IMG/VR virus record: IMGVR_UViG_3300037249_001000
Coordinates: 75,540-139,539 of that record
Origin: a virus
Lineage: Duplodnaviria; Caudoviricetes
DNA: 64,000 nt
Reading direction: 5' to 3' (one strand)
Shown one piece after another: positions 3,049 to 50,832 of this stretch. The notes under the pieces were generated by a model. It did no database searches, was not told the origin of the DNA, and worked only from the letters and a program-made list of their open reading frames with translations. A program made the position numbers and the translations under genes. Every line of letters begins with the position of its first letter. Within the stretch, counting starts at the first letter, position 1.

Positions 3049-3855
3049 ATGGGTAAAAATTTTTTAATTGATGCATTAAGAACAGCTAATCCTAAATCAT
3101 CTATGTTTACAGGTGATGCTTCTGTTTTATCTTATAAAACAGGATTTCCTATTTTAGATTATTATTTAGGTTACTTAGTTAATGTACATGATGAGAACAA
3201 TCAGATTGTAGAACAATATCCAAGTATTGGTATTGCCGCAGGTTGTTATCTTACATTTATAGGTAAGCCATCTACAGGTAAAACAACATTTGCTGTTCAA
3301 GTTGCGTCTAATATTGTAAGACCATTTGATAATGGTTCTGTGATTCATTATGACCTTGAAAAAGCAATGAACTATTCAAGAATTCAAATTCTTTCTAAGT
3401 TTAATATGAAAGAAATGAATGAGGGAAAATATATACTTAAACAAGAGAAAACATCTATTCAGGATATTAAATCTGCTATTATGCAAATTTATAAAGAGAA
3501 AACAAGAAATCCTGAATTGTATAAGTATAGTACAGGAAAGAAAAATGAATTTGGTGATGAAATTTTTTTATATGAACCAACGGTTGTTATCATTGATTCT
3601 ATTCCTATGCTTAGTTCTGCTATAAATGAGAATGATAAAAAAGAAGCAGCTAAACTTGAAGAAATTTCATCACAAACCGATAGAATGAGACTAACTGCTG
3701 AAATAGGAAGATTTTATTCAGAACTTCAGCAGTATATTAAAGAAGCAAATATAATAGTTATTTCCATTAATCAGATTAAAACTAACCCTGACATGGGTAT
3801 TGTTAAATCACCATCTGAAATCCTTTATTTGAGTACTAACGAATCTCTGCCTGGT
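3049..3855 (+). CDS. uvsX: RecA/UvsX-like recombinase, exon 1
   Basis: Walker A GKPSTGKTT, YDLE, Walker B VVIIDS, ISINQ; ends ESLPG at the intron 5' splice site. Confidence 0.85.
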
Positions 3856-4248
3856 AAACAAATCTGCCACAAAATAGCGTAAGCTATTGGACAAACTCTC
3901 CTAATTACTGGGAACTTCTATTAATAGGACAATCAGTAACGAAGTATCTTACTACGATAAGATATGTGTTCAACGACTATCGGAAGCTATACAATCATAT
4001 AGAAATGTATGATTTGAGAATAGTGTGAGTTGAAATACTTGCATGAAGTGAGTAGAGTAACGCCCAAGTTATTGGGGTTGGTAGTTAGATGAGATTAGTC
4101 TAACATAAACCCATTAAAGTGAAACGGAGAGCTCCAGTATATTTGGTAACAGAATATATTGGATGAAGATATAGTCTGAACGTTTATAGAAATATAAAGA
4201 AAGTATTTATACTTGTATGAGTCTAACGAACTCGTATTAACATTTTTG
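3856..4248 (+). mobile_element. Group I intron in recA/uvsX (393 nt, no ORF)
   Basis: Exon ends in U (GGT) pairing with GCC in P1; core elements GTTCAACGACTA and GAAGATATAGTCT; terminal G4248; splicing restores LPG|GKAPQFLA (RecA TPGGRALKFYA motif). Confidence 0.9.
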
Positions 4249-4674
4249 GGAAAGGCTCCGCAATTCCTTGCAAACTATTTATTTAAATTTGTTGCAGTTG
4301 GTGGTGAAAAATTTACAGATGAAGATGATGGTTTTGATGGTTTTGGTTTAAAGATGCTTATTGTTAAATCAAGAACAAATCAAGCTGGTCAGACAATTCA
4401 TTTGCTATATGATAAAGTAAGAGGAGTAGATTCTCTACGTTCCTCTGTTGAATACTCAAAAGAACAAGGATATTTGAATGGAAATAAAAATGGATATTAT
4501 TTTGTAGACGATAAAGAAAATAAGTTTACAAAAAAGAATATGCATGAAGATTTTAAGAATAATAAAGAACTTTATAAAAAATTATATTCTTTAATTATTC
4601 CTGAATTAACAGAGAGATTATCAGCTATTAGTGTAGAAGAAATGGAAATAGTCGATGATGAAATGGATTATTAA
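4249..4674 (+). CDS. uvsX: RecA/UvsX-like recombinase, exon 2
   Basis: GKAPQFLA...IVKSR, in frame with exon 1 after splicing. Confidence 0.85.
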   Translation, partial: GKAPQFLANYLFKFVAVGGEKFTDEDDGFDGFGLKMLIVKSRTNQAGQTIHLLYDKVRGVDSLRSSVEYSKEQGYLNGNKNGYYFVDDKENKFTKKNMHEDFKNNKELYKKLYSLIIPELTERLSAISVEEMEIVDDEMDY

Positions 4675-5254: not shown

Positions 5255-5569
5255 ATGAAATATACAACAATTGCATTCCTCATGAAAGTGAGGAATACAT
5301 ATAAAAGAAATAAAACAAGTAGAGAGAATTTTCTGCCTATTTGGGCAGATAAATTGTTACAAGATATCGGAAACATGGAGGACGTGTCCGATGAGTTCAT
5401 TAACTTCATGAGCATAGTGGTTCAAAAGGGGAGTCCTTTATGGAATCCCCTTAAGGATTCAATAATTGATTCAGATAATCCCAATCCTTACATGGAGTGG
5501 GAGTATGATGATATTATTATACCAGGGGGGATACCAGGTTTCCTGTATCCATTCTGTTTGTTGATGTAG
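5255..5569 (+). CDS. Hypothetical early protein
   Basis: AAGGAGGT RBS; flanked by early motif and terminator. Confidence 0.65.
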   Translation: MKYTTIAFLMKVRNTYKRNKTSRENFLPIWADKLLQDIGNMEDVSDEFINFMSIVVQKGSPLWNPLKDSIIDSDNPNPYMEWEYDDIIIPGGIPGFLYPFCLLM

Positions 5570-5576
5570 GAGAAGA

Positions 5577-5620
5577 GGAGAGTTGTGAAAGGAGGTGAAA
5601 ACCAACTCTCTTTTTTTATT
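5577..5620 (+). terminator. Intrinsic terminator with a Shine-Dalgarno sequence in its loop (copy 2)
   Basis: GAGAGTTGTGAAAGGAGGTGAAAACCAACTCTC followed by a T run. Confidence 0.7.
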
Positions 5621-5662
5621 TTTTTATAGTTATATATAATTTAGGTATACATATTAAATATT

Positions 5663-5726
5663 CGGAGAGCAACACTCCTACGACTAATTAAAGTTGCAGT
5701 CACCCAAGACGTTAAAATGGGAGAAA
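5663..5726 (+). ncRNA. Candidate structured cis-regulatory leader RNA (copy 1)
   Basis: 64-nt element nearly identical to 50680..50743(-); two hairpins with loop-pairing partners, directly before the RBS and ATG. Confidence 0.6.
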
Positions 5727-5737
5727 CGGAGATTATT

Positions 5738-6811
5738 ATGATTAGACATTATGAAGGAAAATTAGGAGTATTTGATTATGATGATACTGAATGGGAAATT
5801 ACAGAAACTGGTAGTAATCCTTATACACATGGTCGCTGTAAAGAAAGTCTTCGCTATATTGGAGATAAAGTTGAAGGTGAAGATATTATAATTCCCTTTG
5901 GAGTTAGTGATTGCTCTTATATGTTTGCAGGGTGCACATCTCTCACAACAGCACCTACGATTCCTGAAGGAGTTAGTGATTGTGACTGCATGTTTATGGG
6001 GTGTACATCTCTTACAACAGCACCGATTATTCCAGATGGAGTAAGAGCTTGTTCAAGTATGTTTCATGGGTGTACATCTCTTACAACAGCACCTACGATT
6101 CCTGAAGGAGTTAGAGACTGTTGGGCAATGTTTAAGGGGTGCACATCTCTCACAACAGCACCTACGATTCCTGAAGGAGTTACTGTTTGTGAATGCATGT
6201 TTATGCGGTGTACATCTCTTACAACAGCACCTACGATTCCTGAAGGAGTTAGAGAGTGTTGGGCAATGTTTGCAGGGTGCACATCTCTCACAACAGCACC
6301 TATAATTTCCAAAGGAGTTACTGTTTGTGAATGCATGTTTATGCGGTGTACATCTCTTACAACAGTACCTATGATTCCTGAAGAAGTTGTAGACTGTTGG
6401 GCAATGTTTAAGGGGTGCACATCTCTCACAACAGCACCTACGATTCCTGAAGGAGTTATTAATTGCTCTTATATGTTTGATGGGTGCACATCTCTCACAA
6501 CAGCACCTACGATTCCTGAAGGAGTTATTGATTGTGACTGCATGTTTTGTGACTGTTCATCTCTTACAACAGCACCTCAAATTCCCGAAGGAGTTACAGA
6601 TTGTTCATGGATGTTTAAGGGGTGCACATCTCTCACAACAGCACCTCAAATTCCCACAGGAGTTAGTGATTGCTCTTATATGTTTGCAGGGTGCACATCT
6701 CTCACAACAGCACCTACGATTCCTGAAGGAGTTATTAATTGCTCTTATATGTTTGCAGGGTGCACATCTCTCACAACAGCACCTGAAATTCCTGAAGCAT
6801 ACACATACTAA
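5738..6811 (+). CDS. BspA/DUF285-like leucine-rich repeat protein with 13 x 23-aa repeats
   Basis: IPEGVxxCxxMFxGCTSLTTAPx repeats; GGAG RBS favours ATG 5738. Confidence 0.85.
   Translation: MIRHYEGKLGVFDYDDTEWEITETGSNPYTHGRCKESLRYIGDKVEGEDIIIPFGVSDCSYMFAGCTSLTTAPTIPEGVSDCDCMFMGCTSLTTAPIIPDGVRACSSMFHGCTSLTTAPTIPEGVRDCWAMFKGCTSLTTAPTIPEGVTVCECMFMRCTSLTTAPTIPEGVRECWAMFAGCTSLTTAPIISKGVTVCECMFMRCTSLTTVPMIPEEVVDCWAMFKGCTSLTTAPTIPEGVINCSYMFDGCTSLTTAPTIPEGVIDCDCMFCDCSSLTTAPQIPEGVTDCSWMFKGCTSLTTAPQIPTGVSDCSYMFAGCTSLTTAPTIPEGVINCSYMFAGCTSLTTAPEIPEAYTY
5891..6795 (+). repeat. Intragenic tandem array of 13 x 69-bp units
   Basis: Constant core (tgcacatctctcacaacagcacctacgattcctgaaggagtt) alternating with variable codons. 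Confidence 0.9.
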
Positions 6812-6935: not shown

Positions 6936-9221
6936 ATGGCAGAAGTACAAAAGTATTCATTAAAAGAAAAATTAACAGAAGCTGACAAAAGTTTATATAG
7001 GTCACCTTCTCTTTATGGTATGAGTGCTTTAACTATACCACGTTACATCAATTCAATGAGGTCGGTTATGTTTACTAACCACCTCAAACAATTTTTAACT
7101 CCACTTGACCCTGATTATCCATTTGTATTTACAAATGCAGAAAATCTTGTTGGTGAACATAGTAGTGGTTATAGGAGAATAAAACATGAATCCGAAGTAT
7201 ACCGAAAAGTTGTTAAATATGAAGATATACTTGGTAGTGATGCAAACGTATACAAACTTTTTATTCTTGATAAAAAGAAAAAGAAGTTTGATGTAATTGA
7301 AAGAAAAGAAGTTGAAGACCTTACAGAAAATTTCGGTTTTAATTATAATAATGAAGAAATTGATAAATATTCTGAAGGTGATACTATAAAGAAAGATACC
7401 GTTCTTTATAAATCGACTTCTTATGACGATGATATGTTTTATGGTTATGGAAAGAATACAACTGTAATGTATACATTAGACCCATATACATCTGAGGATG
7501 CAGCAGTTGCTCGCAGAGGTTATGCTGATAACTATAAAACTATTGAAACAGAAGTTATTCAAATTAAATTAAATGATAATGATTTTCTGTTGAATCTTTA
7601 TGGTGAGGAAGATGGGGAATATAAACCTCTTCCAGATATTGGTGAAACATGCACTGGCATTCTTGGTGCAATAAGAACCCAATTCAATGATCAACTACTT
7701 TATGATTTTAAATCATCTTCATTAAATAAAATTCATGACGGTGATAGAATTATTTATGTAAATGATACAAATGAAATTGTAGATATTACGATATTTTCTA
7801 ATAACGAAGAAATTGTTGATACAATTTTCAATACTCAAATTAATAAATATCTTGAGTCTCAAAATAAATATTATCAAGAGATTTATGATACATGTAAAGA
7901 AATAGTTGAATTTTGTGATTTTAATGCAGGATATTCATATTCACAAGAAATAGATTATTTGTATAAACGTTCTGGTGAAATGTTGGATACTAAAAAGAGA
8001 TGGAAAGAGGGTGACACATCTTTTGCTAATATGGTAATTGAAATAGTCATTCGCAAGGAAGTTCCTTTACGTAAAGGCTGTAAATTGAGTGGACGCTATG
8101 GGAACAAATCCGTTATCTCAGAAATTAGAGACGATGATAAAATGCCATTTACTGAAGATGGAAAGCCTGTTGATTTACTTCTCAATCTTCTTGCTATTAT
8201 TAACAGAACAACTTCATTTGCTATCTATGAATTAATTATAACATCTATTTGTTATAAAGTTCGTCAGAAAATGAAAACATTAAATTCTTATGAAGATAAA
8301 GAAAAATTAATGTTCGATATAATTAATGAATTTAACGAAATTCAGTATGAAGACATGATAAAGAGTTATAACAAATTATCTGATTCTGAAAAGAAATTAG
8401 TTATAGATGAAGCAATAACCGAAGGCATCTATATTAATCAGTCACCTGTAAAAGAAACCAAACCTATCTTTTATCGAATTAAAGATATTCTTGATAAATA
8501 TGATTGGCTTCAACCAGATTTTGTATATATTAAAGATAGCAATGGTAGAAAGATTAAAACTCTTTCTCGTCATTGGATTGGAGATATGTACATTATTAAA
8601 TTAAAGCAGTCTGATAGAAGAGGATTTAGTGCACGCTCTACTGGTACTGTTGATATTAAGGGAGTACCAACTCGGTCATTTAAATCGAAAAATCATATGG
8701 AAAAACACTCAGATTCTGCGATCCGTTTTGGTGAATCAGAGACATTGAACTTTTCTATAGGTGTTCCAAGTGAAGATATTGCATTATTTAATTCTGTTTA
8801 TCGCACATCAATAAAAGGAAGAGAGCAACTTGTAAAAAGTATGTTTAATTTTGATGGAAAGAATAATGAAAATAAAACTAAAATTGATTCTGCATATACA
8901 TCTCGTGTTGCAGAAATATTTGCAGTATTCTTTAAATCATTGGGACTTGAAATTGATTTTGTTGATGAAGATAGCGTTGTACGAGGTTATGATAATAATG
9001 AAATTAAACTTCATACTACTGATGATGGGGAAACTCTTCTTTGTACAGATTATGAGTTTTTCTTGAAACAGAGATATGATGAAATTAAAGAAGAGATTCT
9101 TAAAGAAAATATTATTATGACTGATGAACAACTTAAATCAGAAATTGAAGCAAGACTTAAAGAAAGGAAATTCATTAATGGACCGTTGTATGATGAAGAT
9201 GGTTCATTATTGTTTGAATAA
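6936..9221 (+). CDS. Multisubunit RNA polymerase beta subunit, C-terminal half (probably non-virion RNAP)
   Basis: RSVMFTNHLKQ, SEDAAV, GCKLSGRYGNKSVIS, DLLLN, MYIIKLKQ..SARS, IRFGESE; early motif at 6882..6898. Confidence 0.9.
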   Translation: MAEVQKYSLKEKLTEADKSLYRSPSLYGMSALTIPRYINSMRSVMFTNHLKQFLTPLDPDYPFVFTNAENLVGEHSSGYRRIKHESEVYRKVVKYEDILGSDANVYKLFILDKKKKKFDVIERKEVEDLTENFGFNYNNEEIDKYSEGDTIKKDTVLYKSTSYDDDMFYGYGKNTTVMYTLDPYTSEDAAVARRGYADNYKTIETEVIQIKLNDNDFLLNLYGEEDGEYKPLPDIGETCTGILGAIRTQFNDQLLYDFKSSSLNKIHDGDRIIYVNDTNEIVDITIFSNNEEIVDTIFNTQINKYLESQNKYYQEIYDTCKEIVEFCDFNAGYSYSQEIDYLYKRSGEMLDTKKRWKEGDTSFANMVIEIVIRKEVPLRKGCKLSGRYGNKSVISEIRDDDKMPFTEDGKPVDLLLNLLAIINRTTSFAIYELIITSICYKVRQKMKTLNSYEDKEKLMFDIINEFNEIQYEDMIKSYNKLSDSEKKLVIDEAITEGIYINQSPVKETKPIFYRIKDILDKYDWLQPDFVYIKDSNGRKIKTLSRHWIGDMYIIKLKQSDRRGFSARSTGTVDIKGVPTRSFKSKNHMEKHSDSAIRFGESETLNFSIGVPSEDIALFNSVYRTSIKGREQLVKSMFNFDGKNNENKTKIDSAYTSRVAEIFAVFFKSLGLEIDFVDEDSVVRGYDNNEIKLHTTDDGETLLCTDYEFFLKQRYDEIKEEILKENIIMTDEQLKSEIEARLKERKFINGPLYDEDGSLLFE

Positions 9222-9232
9222 TAATTAATTGG

Positions 9233-9262
9233 TTGGGGCAATAAAAAAATATTGCCCCAATT
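9233..9262. terminator. Hairpin between the RNAP genes
   Basis: TTGGGGCAAT..ATTGCCCCAA inverted repeat, followed by early motif TATATATTATTTTTT. Confidence 0.55.
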
Positions 9263-9327
9263 GGTTATATATTATTTTTTGGACTGCGTAGAAATATGTA
9301 GAATTTATAAATAAGGAGATAATAATT

Positions 9328-10560
9328 ATGGGTAAGAAACAATCAGTGCATATTAGACGTCTTAATTGGGACATTTCCTTTTATGCCGATATGCTAGACG
9401 GTAACGGATTTCAAATAATTGAACCATCTGGTATTTCGATTAATGGTATGAAGAAAAAATCATTATATGGTGCTTCATCACCATTATATGGTACAAGTTA
9501 TGAAGATGAACAATCGTTTATTGAACGATATAGATGTTCATGTGGTGAATTTAAAGGTAGATTATTTGAAGGGGAAGAATGCCCACTTTGTCATACTAAA
9601 GTAGAATATAAATCTAGTAATATTAATGTTACTGGATGGATTTCTTTAGGTATTAAAAGATGCATTAATCCATACTATTTCAATATTCTTCTTTCAGCAA
9701 TAGGTAAAAATGTATTTACTGAAATTATATTTAGTAAATATCGTGTTACTACAGACGGTCAGAGAAAGAAATTAACAGCAGATGACCATATGGATGTAGT
9801 ACCGGAATCAATTTATTCGTTTATTGGTATGAATGAGTTTTATAATAATTATGAAGAAATTCTCACATATTTTAAAAATAAGAAGAAAAATAAAGCTCAC
9901 ACTTTTGATGTTTTATTAAAAGAAAAAAGAGCTGTATTTACTTCTCACATACCAGTATATTCGACAATGTTAAGACCACAATCAATTACATCCGATACAT
10001 TTTATTTTGGTAGTATTGATAAAATTATTAATACATTATATTCACTTAGTGAACACTTAAAAGATGCAACAGATGTAGAAGAAGATTATATTCTGGAAAG
10101 AATCCAGAAAAAAGTTAATAAAATGTGGGACATTAACCTTGAATTAATCAATGGTAAAGAAGGATGGGTAAGACATCAATTGCTCGGTGGTTCAATGAAC
10201 TATACTGCAAGAAATGTAATTATTCCCGATCCGACTCTTCATGATAATGAAGTTGATTTATCATATAATACATTTTTGGAGATGTATAAGTATAAGATTA
10301 TTTATTATATCATGCAACTTGATAATACATCATTGTCCAGAGCATATGAGACATGGAAAGATGCATTTAGATTTGATGAAAAAGTGTATCAAATTATGTT
10401 ACATGTATTGGATAAAGAACAACCAAGATTATTGATAAATCGAAATCCTACATTGAATTATTACTCAATGATATTAATGAAAATAAGAACTATTAAAAAA
10501 GATATCACCGATTATACCCTGTCAGTTCCGCTTAGCATACTGCCAGGTCTTAATGCGGAT
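9328..10560 (+). CDS. RNA polymerase beta' subunit, exon 1
   Basis: Zinc finger CSCG..CPLC, MLRP, ARNVIIP, NRNPTL; ends PGLNAD. Confidence 0.9.
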
Positions 10561-10916
10561 CAACTTTCAAGGTCCGAGAGCACAGTAATGTGTTTCTATG
10601 TACGTTGTGAACTCCTAACAAGAGGTGTGACGAAAGTTGCTAACGGTATCAGTTAAATAAGTCACTTAAGTTTAACTTAAGTAGAGCGAATACACTGACT
10701 AAGAAAGCCTGAGGTCCTGAAAAGGATAGCTTGGTAATACCGTGCTGTTATTTTTAAAAGTGATTTAAAAATAGTAGTGTAGAGACTAACAAAAGCAATT
10801 TTAAATTGTAAGTAGGGTAGGTTTTAGTTTGAGGGCTAGAATCGAAGTGCAACGCCCCTATATTAATATAGGGTGAAGATATAGTCCACGCTGTATCGAA
10901 AGATATGGGTTTCGTG
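10561..10916 (+). mobile_element. Group I intron splitting the catalytic NAD|FDGD motif (356 nt, no ORF)
   Basis: P1 CGGAU/GUCCG with U.G pair at the splice site; GTAGAGACTA and GAAGATATAGTCC core; terminal G10916; splicing restores NADFDGD. Confidence 0.93.
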
Positions 10917-13247
10917 TTTGACGGTGATATCTTAAATATAATAGGTCTTATGAATAAAGCATTTGTATTCATGTTTAGAAAATATGACCCAGTAATGAGA
11001 ATGATTATTAGTAGAGATTCACGTCTCATCAATGAATACTTTTCTATCAATAAAGGTCAGTTAATTGATTTGTATACATTTGCAACTTATGATGGTGAAG
11101 ATGGTTGTAATACTGAAGAATATTATCCTGAAGAAGAAACTATTCAGAAAGATAAGTTTAGTCTTTTAGTAGATTCACCTATTATAAATAATACAAGAGA
11201 ATTAAAAGCATGGTTAAAAGATATATATATCTTAGAGGATTATTTAGAGTCATATGAACAATATAGAATATTCCAGACTAAGATTTATAATATTCTTAAA
11301 GGCTGTTTTGTAATTCCTCAGTGTAGAGATTATCCTATAAGATTTAAATTTACGGCTAATTCAAAAGAATATGTATTACCATTAAGATTGTTTATAATAA
11401 ATACTATTCTTTGGTATCCATTTGTAGAACTTAATGGAATAAATGTTTTAGATGAATCGTTTATCATATTTAATCCAGAAGTATTACCTAATATTGAAAA
11501 TTATCTTAATGATAATTTAATTAGTATCCTTACTGAGTATCATGTTAAGCCTTCAAGTATGAACTATGCTATTTCAGAAGTTTTGTACAATCTTAGAGGT
11601 ATTTCTAATGATTATTCTATTATTCTTGGTTTGGATTTTAATATTCCTATGTTTACAAAACTTTATTCTGAAAATGATAGAATACGAGAAATAATGGAGT
11701 GTCATTTTGAAAATGATGCTCAACCACATGAAATTGAACAAGAATTATCTGTATTGGAAAAGGAATTTATCGGTATTGTTACTGGATTGAAAGATAACCA
11801 TTTAGGTATTGCATTAAGAGCTCAAACAGGTATTAAACATAAACAGCTTACAGAGTTTGCAATATCTGAAGGACTTAAACCAGATATATCTGGTAGAACT
11901 ATTCCAATTCCAATTCAAACATCAACATTGATTGGTGGTACTAATACACCTAGTGCACAATATATTGATGCAGCTGCAGCTCGTAAGTCATTGATTATGA
12001 ATAAAAAGGTTATGGGTATTGCAGGTCATTTTGGTAAAACAGTTCTTATGAGTGCTCGTACTCTTAGTATGAGTACAGAAGTCTCAGATTGTGGAACAAA
12101 ACATCTGGTTGCTTATGATGTTTTGAATAAAACTATTCTTAAGAAACTTACTGGTAAATTTTATAGACTTACAGATGACCCTGAAGAAGAATTAAAACTT
12201 CTTAATGCAAAGAAAGATAAAAATCTTATAGGTAAGACAATTTATGTACGTTCCGCTGCAACATGTGCTTGTAGAAATCAACATCATGTATGTGCTAAAT
12301 GTGTTGGATTAACTGCTGTAATTAATGCAGATATTTCAGATGGTATTTCAGCATTTGAATCAGAAGAAATTACAAAAGTTGTTAATCAGAATATTCTTTC
12401 TGCAAAACATTTGTTGTCAACAAATTCTGAAGAGATTAAATTCAATAAAGAATTTTATGATTTCTTTACAATTGTAGGTGGTGAAATAAATCCGATTGTT
12501 AATGAAAATTCTAATGTTAATATAAAGGATTATGCTATTTATGTTGACCCAAGTGATATTGTAAAGATGGAAGAAATGGATGATGATTCATTGTACAATA
12601 CAGTTATTGAAACTGGTAGATTCTTCATTCGTAATATCAATGATCCATCTGAACCTGATATTGTTATTCAAGTAGAGGGTGAGAAAGAAATCTTTATAGA
12701 GGAAAGTATATTGGCTTTATTAAGATCTGGTAATAACATGATTAAGTTTACAGACCTTGAAGATGATGATAAACTCTTTGAAGTTATTATTATGAATAAT
12801 GAGTTGACAAAACCATTGTATGAGTTGATGCATTTGTTGGATAAACAGAGTAAGGATACTATTAATATTGATATTGATTATATTAGTAATAAATTCCTTA
12901 GTTTGGTAATTGATGCAAAGATAGATGTATCTGCTATCGCATGTGAGCTTATTATTAATAGACTTATTCGTTCAGCTGAAGATATTTATCGCCGTCCTGA
13001 TTTCTCAAAGGATACGTTAGAACCATATGTAATTTTTACAGTGAGAAAATCATTGGAAAAGAATCCATCACCTTTGATGGGGATAGGTTTCCAGAATATT
13101 AAACGTCAGTTGTTATCGAATGATTTGTTTGAAAAGAGAACTGAAACATCATATATTGATAACTTCTTTAAACCAACAATATCAACGGAGAATTTGTCTA
13201 AATATGCTGTTTATTATGATGAAAACTCATTAAACAGTCCTAAATAA
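10917..13247 (+). CDS. RNA polymerase beta' subunit, exon 2 (includes the whole beta'-C part; spliced product 1187 aa)
   Basis: FDGD, bridge helix AAAARKSLIMNK..AGHFGK, DCGT, RSAATC..CAKCVG zinc site, QNILSAKH. Confidence 0.88.
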   Translation, partial: FDGDILNIIGLMNKAFVFMFRKYDPVMRMIISRDSRLINEYFSINKGQLIDLYTFATYDGEDGCNTEEYYPEEETIQKDKFSLLVDSPIINNTRELKAWLKDIYILEDYLESYEQYRIFQTKIYNILKGCFVIPQCRDYPIRFKFTANSKEYVLPLRLFIINTILWYPFVELNGINVLDESFIIFNPEVLPNIENYLNDNLISILTEYHVKPSSMNYAISEVLYNLRGISNDYSIILGLDFNIPMFTKLYSENDRIREIMECHFENDAQPHEIEQELSVLEKEFIGIVTGLKDNHLGIALRAQTGIKHKQLTEFAISEGLKPDISGRTIPIPIQTSTLIGGTNTPSAQYIDAAAARKSLIMNKKVMGIAGHFGKTVLMSARTLSMSTEVSDCGTKHLVAYDVLNKTILKKLTGKFYRLTDDPEEELKLLNAKKDKNLIGKTIYVRSAATCACRNQHHVCAKCVGLTAVINADISDGISAFESEEITKVVNQNILSAKHLLSTNSEEIKFNKEFYDFFTIVGGEINPIVNENSNVNIKDYAIYVDPSDIVKMEEMDDDSLYNTVIETGRFFIRNINDPSEPDIVIQVEGEKEIFIEESILALLRSGNNMIKFTDLEDDDKLFEVIIMNNELTKPLYELMHLLDKQSKDTINIDIDYISNKFLSLVIDAKIDVSAIACELIINRLIRSAEDIYRRPDFSKDTLEPYVIFTVRKSLEKNPSPLMGIGFQNIKRQLLSNDLFEKRTETSYIDNFFKPTISTENLSKYAVYYDENSLNSPK

Positions 13248-18516: not shown

Positions 18517-18605
18517 TGGTGCCGGTGACGAGATTTGAACTCGTACGGGTTATACAATCCGAGGGATTTTAAGTCCCTTGTGTCTGCCTATTCCACCACA
18601 CCGGC
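18517..18605 (-). tRNA. tRNA-Leu(UAA)
   Basis: GCCGGTG..GACTTAAAATC anticodon arm, long variable arm, GTTCAA T-loop, encoded CCA. Confidence 0.95.
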
Positions 18606-18637
18606 AAATATTTATTTCCTATGTATATATAATTAAG

Positions 18638-18709
18638 CTGGGCTGGCGAGATTCGAACTCACGGATGACGGAGTCAAAGTCCGTTGCCTTACCACTTGGC
18701 GACAGCCCA
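18638..18709 (-). tRNA. tRNA-Gln(UUG)
   Basis: TGGGCTG acceptor, GACTTTGACTC anticodon arm, GTTCGAATC; CCA not encoded. Confidence 0.93.
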
Positions 18710-18828
18710 TTATATTAGATGTTTTACTAATGACTCAGTTGGATCTACGTATAGGATATAGGAGTTGTCAAATAATATATCTAACCAACTGAGTCAAATT
18801 TTTCATTACGACTCTCTATTGAGTTGTA

Positions 18829-18904
18829 TGGTGAACCATCGGAGATTCGAACTCCGGACACCTTGATTAAAAGTCAAGTGCTCTGCCTACTGAGCTAATG
18901 ATTC
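18829..18904 (-). tRNA. tRNA-Lys(UUU)
   Basis: TAGCTCAG D-arm, TGACTTTTAATCA anticodon arm, encoded CCA. Confidence 0.95.
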
Positions 18905-18913
18905 ATATAATAG

Positions 18914-18988
18914 TGCAGCCTCAGGGACTCGAACCCTGGACCAACCGGTTATGAGCCGGTAGCTCTAACCAAACTGAGCTAAGGCTAC
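18914..18988 (-). tRNA. tRNA with CAU anticodon, most like tRNA-Ile2 (lysidine type)
   Basis: ACCGGCTCATAACCGGT anticodon arm matches the Firmicute Ile2 pattern GGCTCATAACC. Confidence 0.85.
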
Positions 18989-41248: not shown

Positions 41249-42556
41249 CTTTTATGTTCATATAAGTTCGTTAGACTCATATAAGTATAAATACTTCTTT
41301 ATATCTCTATAAATGGTCAGACTATATCTTCATCCAATAACTCTATTACCAAGTTATTGGAGCTATTCATTTCACTTTAATGGATTTATGTTAAACTAAT
41401 CTCATCTAACTACCAACCACTTGGCGTTACTCTACTCACTTCGTGTAGATATTTCAATCTACCTTATTTTCAAATTATAAATTTCTTTATAATTATATAG
41501 CTTTCGATAGTCGTTGAACTATAAATAATCTTTATATATCTCCTTTCTACGAATTTTCCGTATTGTTGCCATCCTACTTTCTTTTTTACTTCCATCTGTA
41601 TAAATTTCATTGAATATTTCAATATTAGAATATCCTTTATTAATTAACTCATTAATTAATGGAATTTTAGCAACAGTTTCTTCTTGTTGAGGTGTCAATT
41701 TAGTTTTAGATGAAAAATCATATTTTTGTGATATTTCATTCCATGCTAATCTGTTTTTAATACGTACTAATAATTGACGATATTTCTTTTCATTAGGTAA
41801 GTTTAATAATTGTAGAATTTCATCATAAGATTTTTCTTCGGAAAGATATTGACAAATTTTTTCAGCTTGAGTATTTGTTATTAAAGCATATACACTATTT
41901 TCACATGTTGTGTTTATTTCTTTACGTTCAAATGCTGCTTTAGTATTTTCACCATGAGTCTTTATTTCTAAATTTAAGTAAAAATTATTTAATCCGTTAT
42001 TATCCAGATGATCAGGTACTAAATTTTCTTTTGGAACATTTTTATACCTTTTTGGAATTTTTAAGAAACAGTGTGCAACTAATTGATGGACAAGAACCCA
42101 TTCTTTTTTGCCATTTTTCATTTCTAAATATACAGCATAGTAAGGATGTTTCTTTTTATTAGCAACTTTAAAAGTTACTCGTTCTTTTGTTTCCTTAATT
42201 CTTACATCACCATAATTACTAACTTCATAGATATTATTTTTAACTTTTTTAAAATTTTTCAATACCTTCCATTCTTCAAAATATCCAACATAAGTCATTA
42301 ATTATTCAACTCCTTTATAATAATTTATGTTATGATATATAATTGATTATTTATAGCTGCGGATTATCTCTATCTCCAATCTTATTACTATACCTTAGGC
42401 ATTACCCTTCGCCACTATAATATCACTATTATAGTTTAGTAATTGAAGCTTAGCAAGCATATTATAAATAATATGTCTGGTTTGCAAGACCAGAAATTTC
42501 CCGCATTTAGAATAGTTGTTTTATATACATTACTGTATATGGAGACCATAGAATTA
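41249..42556 (-). mobile_element. Group I intron in dnaB (1308 nt) carrying a homing endonuclease
   Basis: P1 GGAGAU/GUCUCC; core GTTCAACGACTA and GAAGATATAGTCT; terminal G at 41249; phase-2 junction restores a 565-aa helicase. Confidence 0.9.
41519..42298 (-). CDS. Intron-encoded NUMOD4-HNH homing endonuclease
   Basis: EEWK..YEVSNYGDVR (NUMOD4), VHQLVA..F..PDHLDNNGLNNFYLNLE..EN (HNH). Confidence 0.9.
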   Translation of the reverse strand: MTYVGYFEEWKVLKNFKKVKNNIYEVSNYGDVRIKETKERVTFKVANKKKHPYYAVYLEMKNGKKEWVLVHQLVAHCFLKIPKRYKNVPKENLVPDHLDNNGLNNFYLNLEIKTHGENTKAAFERKEINTTCENSVYALITNTQAEKICQYLSEEKSYDEILQLLNLPNEKKYRQLLVRIKNRLAWNEISQKYDFSSKTKLTPQQEETVAKIPLINELINKGYSNIEIFNEIYTDGSKKESRMATIRKIRRKEIYKDYL

Positions 42557-44668: not shown

Positions 44669-45319
44669 TTAGATAAGTCGTGCATTATTAGCATAATTCA
44701 AATTACCATCAATAACAACTTCGCCTACAATCGCTGCGCAACCAGAAATACTTGCATTATCTTTGACAACTGCATCCTCTGCAACAATTGCATGCTCATA
44801 AACGCATGCATTACCAGACACAGTTGCATTTCCAGTTACTGTTGCACAACCAGAAATACTTGCATTATCTTTGACAACTGCATCCTCTGCAACAATTGCA
44901 TGCTCATAAACGCATGCATTACCAGACACAGTTGCATTTCCAGTTACTGTTGCACAACCAGAAATACTTGCATTATCTTTGACACCACAGCTCGATCCCT
45001 TAATAACTGCATGATCAGAAACCGTAACATTATCATCAACAACAGCTTTACCAGCAACAATTGCATAGTCAGTAACTTTAGTATGCCCTTTAATCATAGC
45101 ATTATCCATGACAATACCATTATCCATGACAATAGCATTATCTCCAACCCATGCGGAGCCGTGTTCGAGATTCTCTTCTCTCTCAATCCATCCGCCAATA
45201 TCACCACGTTTAACATCATGGTAACCCAAATCAGTTGTAGCTCTGATTCGATTGAGAGTATGACCCATGTACTTTCTTGTCTCACCTGTAAACTCATATG
45301 TTCTTTTTACATCACTCAT
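44669..45319 (-). CDS. Hexapeptide-repeat protein, paralog 2
   Basis: YEFTGET..LNRIRA..GDIGGWIEREENL; V.dnA repeats. Confidence 0.8.
   Translation of the reverse strand: MSDVKRTYEFTGETRKYMGHTLNRIRATTDLGYHDVKRGDIGGWIEREENLEHGSAWVGDNAIVMDNGIVMDNAMIKGHTKVTDYAIVAGKAVVDDNVTVSDHAVIKGSSCGVKDNASISGCATVTGNATVSGNACVYEHAIVAEDAVVKDNASISGCATVTGNATVSGNACVYEHAIVAEDAVVKDNASISGCAAIVGEVVIDGNLNYANNARLI
44739..44984. repeat. Exact 108-bp tandem duplication (about 2.3 copies) inside paralog 2
   Basis: caaccagaaatacttgcattatctttgaca recurs at 44739, 44847 and 44955. Confidence 0.9.
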
Positions 45320-45478
45320 ATTATTATCTCCTTTATATAAAATATATTAAGAATAGTTCTGCTTTTTACTGGATCAAGCATAACCTAATGACATAAAAAT
45401 AATATATAAATTAATAAATTAAAAATACATGTAAAGATACCTTTGTTAATCACAAAGGTATCTTTACTAATTTTATTA

Positions 45479-50447: not shown

Positions 50448-50669
50448 TTATTTTTTATTTTTTAATCTATTAATCTCTTTTTTCCATTGGTTTGCAAACT
50501 CTCTTTCCGCTTCGTTTTTTGCTTTGGAAAATACTGAGTCAATCGTATTTTCCATTTCGATTATACTTTCGGTCACAATATCTTCATGTGATCTTGTTGT
50601 ATTTGCTTCCTTTTCGAGAATTTTATTTTTGAGGATTTCCTCGGGTCCTATAAATATCATTCTACCCAT
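50448..50669 (-). CDS. Small hypothetical early protein
   Basis: AAAGGTGAG RBS before ATG 50669; follows the leader RNA copy 2. Confidence 0.6.
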   Translation of the reverse strand: MGRMIFIGPEEILKNKILEKEANTTRSHEDIVTESIIEMENTIDSVFSKAKNEAEREFANQWKKEINRLKNKK

Positions 50670-50679
50670 AAGACTCACC

Positions 50680-50743
50680 TTTCTCCCATTTTAACGTCTT
50701 GGGTGACTGCAACTTTTATTAGACACAGGAGTGTTGCTCTCCG
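50680..50743 (-). ncRNA. Candidate structured cis-regulatory leader RNA (copy 2)
   Basis: Reverse complement CGGAGAGCAACACTCCT-GTGTCTAATAAAA-GTTGCAGTCACCCAAGACGTTAAAATGGGAGAAA; early motif just upstream. Confidence 0.6.
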
Positions 50744-50832
50744 TTTATTACTATAAAAATAATATATATATATATGAATTTAATTAAAATACGAAGAACT
50801 GTAAGATTTTATGTCTTACAGTTCTTCATTAA

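Follow-up and report, generated by a model that had tools for sequence, protein, structure and literature searches.

The window analyzed here, a stretch of 64,000 nucleotides, comes from a 139.5-kb IMG/VR virus record, of which it forms the right-hand part; the record was estimated to be 58% complete. The phage has genes for an RNA polymerase beta-like protein and a phiKZ-type prohead protease, and is an AR9-like jumbo phage with 27% GC and its own RNA polymerase. Public sequencing runs placed it in bovine gut metagenomes and also gave RNA-library contigs covering both of the window leaders described below. Screening of the whole window against Rfam 15 at gathering score listed only four tRNAs (gene cluster at 18520-18988(-), with scores of 69, 65, 64 and 58 bits), and the same run missed a group I intron (RF00028) at 3864-4199(+), between the ORFs 3049-3882 and 4213-4674, that scored 61.4 bits against a gathering score of 50. 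As an intron above its gathering score thus went unlisted, the filters of the whole-window run evidently miss things. About 240 nt of this intron recur with 81% identity at 41281-41518(-), and a third related stretch is found outside the window, at G000:C1 66369-66739.

A pattern search and nhmmer located a 64-nt element in two copies, copy 1 at 5663-5726(+) and copy 2 at 50680-50743(-). The two are identical at 60 of 64 positions and the mismatches, at element positions 18, 19, 21 and 27, all fall within a 13-nt spacer, confirming what a preliminary description of this DNA had reported; the same applies to its remark that the copies are GC-rich against an AT-rich background (44% GC vs 27% for the genome). 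Likeness between the copies ends at both edges of the 64 nt, the promoter-side flanks and the Shine–Dalgarno (SD)/start regions being unlike. When a gapped pattern with 34 fixed bases was used, it matched only copies 1 and 2 in the window, with no matches in 100 dinucleotide shuffles, and nhmmer run without filters over the 139.5-kb record gave no additional close copy of the 64-nt element.

Each copy sits between an AR9-type early promoter and an SD/AUG, also as previously described. The early-promoter box TATATTAT occurs 22 times in G000. In the virion-polymerase promoter of AR9 this box is followed by 6 nt and then the transcript start (PMC5312081), and because of this match we placed the transcript starts of the present phage 6 nt past the box. 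By box and spacing, the units are AR9-type early (virion RNA polymerase) transcription units with predicted starts. The copy 1 promoter, TATATAAT at 5633-5647(+), has one mismatch to the box, with a predicted +1 at about 5647, and is preceded by the intrinsic terminator of the upstream gene, seen in the sequence as an 8-bp GC-containing hairpin and a T run at 5578-5617(+), which makes the copy 1 gene a stand-alone unit. After the element follow a purine tail AGAAAC, the SD core GGAG (5728-5731) and the AUG (5738-5740), together spanning 5722-5740(+), and the gene itself (5738-6811(+)) encodes an LRR_5 protein (BspA-type LRR). Copy 2 has an exact box (50766-50759) in its promoter at 50752-50766(-), with 6 nt to a predicted +1 at about 50752/50751. 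Its SD, GGUGAG at 50679-50674, and an AUG at 50669 lead into a 73-aa ORF (50448-50679(-) including the SD), again a stand-alone unit downstream of a terminator. The product is an ORFan of no known family, and an identical protein is carried by a 231-kb contig. Leaders with the element are 82-85 nt long, vs a median of 39 nt for the ordinary, A/T-rich early leaders.

Modules of the element and selection on its sequence

The four complementarities named in the preliminary description (GGAG/CUCC, GCAAC/GUUGC, GUC/GAC and CCCA/UGGG) are all present, and its structural reading as two adjacent H-type pseudoknots holds, with relatives showing compensating changes. Read from the sequence, with compensating variants in relatives, knot A of copy 1 (5664-5697(+)) would consist of a hairpin, H1, pairing GGAG 5664-5667 with CUCC 5675-5678, a loop-downstream helix pairing GCAAC 5669-5673 with GUUGC 5693-5697, and the A/U-rich spacer (5679-5692) as third loop. 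Knot B (5699-5721(+)), read likewise and by comparison with other leaders, would have a helix S1 of GUC 5699-5701 with GAC 5708-5710, a helix S2 of CCCA 5703-5706 with UGGG 5718-5721, a lone A at each of 5702 and 5707, and a loop 3, rich in A, spanning 5711-5717. The corresponding positions of copy 2, on the minus strand, are 50742-50739 with 50731-50728 (H1) and 50737-50733 with 50713-50709 (loop-downstream helix) in knot A, and 50707-50705 with 50698-50696 (S1) and 50703-50700 with 50688-50685 (S2) in knot B.

In two runs, RNA-library contigs of the copy-2-type leader ended at 5665 and 5670, the latter end directly following Illumina adapter sequence. Both positions fall within hairpin H1, 11-16 nt past the predicted start. 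This is a weak hint, and the ends could reflect either a processed RNA end or an assembly effect.

A weak nhmmer match marked a diverged copy 3 outside the window, at G000:C1 36266-36200(-), with an exact early promoter upstream and a gene for a 145-aa membrane protein downstream. Its 3' half retains GUC..GAC and CCCA..UGGG, whereas its 5' hairpin is GGGA/UCCC in place of the GGAG/CUCC of copies 1 and 2, and its loop-downstream helix GCUUU:AAAGC in place of GCAAC:GUUGC. Two more early leaders bear only a knot-A-like module of a second type, with loop UUAUGCUU and downstream AAGCA and with hairpin stems GGU/AUC and UAAUAG/CUAUUA. One of these is found at 45319-45400(-) (module at about 45360-45385), ahead of the gene for a 216-aa repeat protein, and the other at G000:C1 31285-31351(-), ahead of that for a 101-aa membrane protein. 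Since some leaders hold only the second-type 5' module, the element is modular, with knot A on the 5' and knot B on the 3' side. The family has at least five related members among the leaders of this phage, and in it knot A is a lineage-specific accessory 5' module of two sequence types and knot B, an H-type pseudoknot of 28-32 nt, is the conserved core. The element had earlier been called duplicated; the two copies stand, while a limit to two does not, given these leaders and the occurrence of the 3' knot in other phages.

Comparison of related sequences pointed to selection on the element itself. In the leader L243 the element is identical to that of copy 2 at 63 of 64 positions, with the coding sequences at 74% DNA and 69% protein identity, and divergence equal to that of the coding sequence is seen in the 10-13 nt that separate the element from the AUG as well as in the 60 nt upstream. 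For copy 3 the leader showed 0 mismatches in 100 nt, vs 8% in the coding sequence and 4-10% in the flanks. A strain variant of copy 1, assembled in metatranscriptome-library contigs, has changes within the element only at 5689, in the spacer, and at 5711, where loop 3 begins, whereas its SD spacer and coding sequence do vary, and in a strain variant of copy 2 the element is kept with the SD region altered. Judging from these sequence comparisons, we regard the element as a real, selected, strand-specific and position-fixed 5'-UTR RNA, and that it is a structured and functional leader RNA appears highly probable.

Knot B in other phages

An initial metagenome pattern gave no matches, and leaders on metagenome contigs were first collected using a degenerate knot-B pattern in which the helices were fixed. 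In all, about 17 leaders, from several uncultured phages, were seen to have knot B. By blastp, L206 and L216 come from relatives in the same jumbo-phage clade; L207 and L213 also carry knot B; and L210, a contig with phage-like genes, has it downstream of a textbook sigma-A-type promoter. L208 and L211, at 52-58% GC and in a different context, are doubtful members.

Protein homology gave leaders without the use of any helix-fixing pattern. For the gene downstream of the L206 copy, an ortholog with 43% identity lies on the 233-kb contig L235, where three consecutive early genes at 8878-11083(+) each have their own early promoter and knot B, with two of the three being paralogs at 59% identity. 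More remote members of this gene family supplied the leaders L249, L250 and L251, and orthologs of the copy 2 gene supplied L243, L244 and L245. Knot B comes and goes between orthologous leaders, such that the third gene of L206 is without the knot while its L235 ortholog has it, and L251 contains one intact and one decayed copy. In the latter, at L251 50-79(+), the two strands of S2 have been replaced together (GCAC / GC), but S1 persists, as do both junction A bases, loop 3 and the purine tail; the intact copy lies 350 nt away on the same contig. The genes downstream of the knots, encoding an LRR_5 protein, small membrane proteins and ORFans, are mutually unrelated, and the earlier statement that the leaders precede unrelated genes thereby agrees with products that share no family.

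Outside these contigs the searches were negative within their scopes. The closest complete relative, G001 (250 kb, RNA polymerase 62% identical), has the same promoters, and blastn, regular expressions, a descriptor and a covariance model found no copy in it. In IMG/VR, searching with exact and gapped patterns, either for the full element or for its halves, yielded chance matches only, mostly within coding sequence. Among 185,000 species genomes of bacteria and archaea there was no genuine match to the knot, only chance matches inside coding sequence. Using blastn with knot B against 50,697 GenBank phage records returned nothing.

Compensating changes and alternative folds

S1 of knot B is GUC/GAC in most copies and GAG/CUC in L249, amounting to two compensating pairs. 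Aligned without gaps, L249 and L235a show 5 differences in 34 bases, of which 4 belong to this S1 swap; the comparison was done by hand, as the model missed L249 at E<=1. In S2, the L235a, L235b and L250a leaders have acquired a matched A:U pair by insertion of an A into the C-rich and a U into the G-rich strand, L244 has gained a matched C:G pair, and L245 and L250b have C-to-U changes that leave G.U pairs. In a model-fitted alignment of 19 distinct knot-B rows, 100% of the cells were paired, vs 30-58% when the partners were slid. The preliminary description had proposed that homologs be collected and covariation assessed. The homologs and the compensating changes were found, while significant covariation was not, with the covariation pair count over the 19 rows, many of which came from the helix-fixing pattern, being reached by the shuffle control in 148 of 500 cases. 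The covariation of knot B is thus real but thin, because its helices hardly vary and many rows were pattern-selected. With variation this low, and with the shuffle control not exceeded, the pairing pattern still identifies knot B as a predicted H-type pseudoknot.

In knot A, across eight leaders aligned by hand in A/U-rich sequence, H1 appeared as GGAG/CUCC, GGGA/UCCC, GGU/AUC and UAAUAG/CUAUUA, and the loop-downstream helix GCAA:UUGC was swapped for GCUU:AAGC, also between copy 2 and its ortholog L244. A generic pseudoknot descriptor was non-specific, with 2865 matches in this A/T-rich genome. Because of the hand alignment of A/U-rich sequence and the unspecific descriptor, we grade the fold of knot A as no more than probable.

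Nested single-sequence folding did no better on the native sequences than on shuffles (z of -0.6 and +0.5), using a tool that ignores pseudoknots. RNAalifold, applied to alignment A9, proposed a rival nested long-range fold of -5 kcal/mol, in which 5675-5684 pairs with 5707-5723 and both knots are excluded. There the CUCC strand is paired with GGGAG of knot B, and GUCU of the spacer with AGAC, containing the GAC side of S1; two of the spacer differences between copies 1 and 2 keep the pairing (A-U to G.U and C-G to U.G). Since this alternative has two compensating pairs, the tandem-knot fold may not be the sole state. The modelled fold may represent a second conformer, or else a by-product of crowded SD-like and anti-SD-like words.

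That the helices of knot B vary so little also bears upon what the structure could be for. One explanation would be a constitutive structural element with no specific partner, either protecting the mRNA from endonucleolytic or 5'-to-3' decay or keeping the SD unpaired and thereby boosting initiation. Stabilisers at the 5' end act on mRNAs in Bacillus, no more than about 10-16 nt separate knot A from the predicted transcript start, the leaders with the element are about twice as long as ordinary ones, and the RNA-library contigs of the copy 2 unit were deeper than their neighbours, although depth of this kind is a weak measure. Such a stabiliser should however have freely covarying helices, whereas distant phages show almost no variation in S1, S2 and the junction A bases. 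Furthermore, in the leaders having only knot B some 20-25 unstructured A/U-rich bases come before the knot, which is therefore not a 5'-terminal cap. We hold this explanation to be rather unlikely. As the helices are near-invariant across phages with proteins only about 40% identical, the bases themselves are suggested to be read.

The element could also be considered at the level of DNA or of RNA processing, as a recombination or promoter cassette similar to the PeSL, a DNA-protein operator, a second promoter, or an RNA processing or self-cleavage site. Identical promoter-leader cassettes in front of unrelated ORFans do recall mobile early-promoter cassettes, and the RNA-library contig ends at 5670 and 5665 are located inside H1. 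The compensating changes fall, however, on RNA pairs, the orientation is strictly sense, and the distance to the AUG is fixed whatever the promoter type. Nor were the more specific forms borne out: AR9 late promoters follow the rule AACA-N6-TA (PMC5312081), no such promoter lies in the element, and an embedded late promoter was accordingly rejected. Models of self-cleaving ribozymes (twister, pistol, hatchet, hammerhead and HDV-like) gave no match, and contig ends are not mapped RNA ends. A role at the DNA or processing level is, in our judgement, very improbable.

Position at the Shine–Dalgarno tract and comparison with known systems

The geometry of knot B is compact, with a 3-bp S1, a 4-5-bp S2 and a single A at both junctions. 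Loop 1 measures 1-2 nt and the A-rich loop 3 spans the 3-bp helix with 6-11 nt, giving near-ideal H-type proportions; having only 3+4 pairs, the knot would be expected to be marginally stable alone. In 17 leaders, the distance from the end of the S2 G-run to the AUG is 11-18 nt, in one it is 6 nt, and all are in sense orientation. The last G of the knot runs straight into an (A)GAAAG purine tract, followed by the SD core, which is itself not sequestered by the knot. This tract is complementary to UCUUUC in the Bacillota-type 16S 3' tail, and with the G-run joined to it, the S2 helix would abut the SD/anti-SD helix on the ribosome. Early leaders with and without the element had equal predicted energies for the SD/anti-SD duplex with the 16S tail; a weak SD is thus not obviously what the knot makes up for, and we rejected this idea.

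We also tried and discarded several further candidates: a conserved upstream mini-ORF starting from an AUG or GUG inside knot B (frames and stops vary among the copies), a mimic of the tRNA-Gly anticodon loop (position 33 is unconserved), a put-like antiterminator (knot B is also found behind a sigma-A-type promoter) and a ToxI-like antitoxin repeat (the element is without tandem repetition and has no Rfam match).

Because knot B follows both AR9-type promoters and the sigma-A-type promoter of L210, its role should be exerted at the RNA level and independently of the polymerase. Sense orientation, independence of promoter type, unrelated genes and near-invariant bases together argue for a role in initiation with base-specific recognition. 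The earlier suggestion of a riboswitch-like or protein-binding element of translational control fits the fixed position at the SD and the strong conservation, both of them features of sequence. Our best explanation, which we would give about an even chance as a whole, is a tandem-knot leader that serves as operator or modulator of translation initiation and is read by a trans factor. The element would thus be transcribed from virion-RNA-polymerase (early) promoters as a cis-acting 5'-UTR RNA, and the transcript would fold into two adjacent H-type pseudoknots, such that the folded knot B would lie flush against the SD/anti-SD helix as the 30S subunit docks. A trans factor, which may be a protein of phage or host or else the 30S platform itself, would then recognise knot B in a sequence-specific manner, the knot would act as operator or modulator of initiation, and a few stand-alone early genes would thereby share post-transcriptional control. 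Considering the parts separately, we infer an effect on translation initiation, and its direction, with the balance tipped slightly in favor of such an effect, whereas action through a trans-acting protein, with a presumed partner, is a tentative proposal of somewhat less than even probability.

Knot B might instead be the aptamer of a new small riboswitch class of preQ1-I size, with a ligand-dependent fold gating 30S access. A marginal 3+4-bp knot of 28-32 nt should need extra stabilisation, and the invariant junction A bases, the A-rich loop 3 and the very high sequence conservation would suit a binding site; furthermore, the 3' strand adjoins the SD (overlapping it in L213) and a mutually exclusive alternative fold is possible. 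In full form, this would be a phage-borne riboswitch by which giant and other gut phages gate the translation of selected early genes in response to a small molecule or signal of the host; knot A and the long-range fold would be its expression platform. Set against this, the downstream genes are without a common metabolic theme, there is no Rfam similarity, and the 185,000 bacterial and archaeal species genomes held no genuine match, whereas the riboswitch classes known to us are rooted in cellular genomes. We find both the aptamer and its full regulatory form distinctly unlikely.

To our knowledge, jumbo phages with their own RNA polymerases have been studied mainly with regard to transcription, and the translational control of their early genes is almost unknown. 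A compact, sequence-conserved RNA knot docked at the SD tract in a small regulon whose early genes are ORFans, common to several lineages of uncultured gut phages and absent from Rfam, gives a test object for three questions: whether phages time their early proteins by operator-like or riboswitch-like RNAs, what a folded RNA neighbouring the SD/anti-SD helix does to 30S docking in hosts of Bacillota type, and whether such short modules could be portable parts for translational control.

As for known families, the preliminary description had been unable to assign the element to any, and this agreed with the Rfam covariance-model search, which gave no match at gathering score and, for the region 5560-5800 at E<=10, only three meaningless lncRNA/snoRNA matches (E>7). 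Among the closest known systems is the gene 32 operator of T4, T2 and RB69, which is also a 5'-UTR H-type pseudoknot upstream of a phage RBS, nucleating protein binding and controlling translation. That operator, however, serves one gene, is autoregulated by the gene's own product and has its knot far upstream of an unstructured A/U tract, whereas the present element precedes unrelated genes, has two knots, abuts the SD and is without sequence likeness to it; moreover, no downstream gene matches an SSB family. The preQ1-I riboswitch (RF00522) is likewise an H-type pseudoknot of about 30 nt with short junction loops, an A-rich third loop and a 3' strand at or in the SD, but in the element the C-rich strand precedes the G-rich one, the downstream genes are not queuosine genes, and the preQ1-I covariance model gave no match in 5560-5800 at E<=10. 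The pseudoknots of E. coli rpsO (S15) and the alpha operon (S4) similarly lie at the RBS, are recognised by protein and trap or block the 30S subunit; unlike the element, whose knot ends just 5' of the SD and for which a host factor is hypothetical, they include the SD and start codon and serve autoregulation by ribosomal proteins. The PeSL of T4-type phages are repeated early-promoter cassettes flanking ORFans, with a stem-loop that is a terminator upstream of the promoter, and act as a recombination module. The present cassettes are also repeated next to unrelated ORFans, but they carry the repeat within the transcribed leader, where it appears selected as an RNA fold.

The AR9 early units share the promoter grammar (TATATTAT, 6 nt, +1) (PMC5312081), and for them long 5' UTRs and a predicted early-UTR motif of unknown role have been reported (Lavysh et al. 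2017, PMC5312081). The blastn search with knot B against GenBank phages gave nothing, and identity of the element with the AR9 motif would be hypothetical. We consider the element to represent an uncatalogued, modular, multi-gene family of leader pseudoknots in uncultured gut phages. Although it differs from each of the known types in defining features, by analogy it would work most like the protein-bound operators of gene 32, rpsO and the alpha operon, or like preQ1-I.
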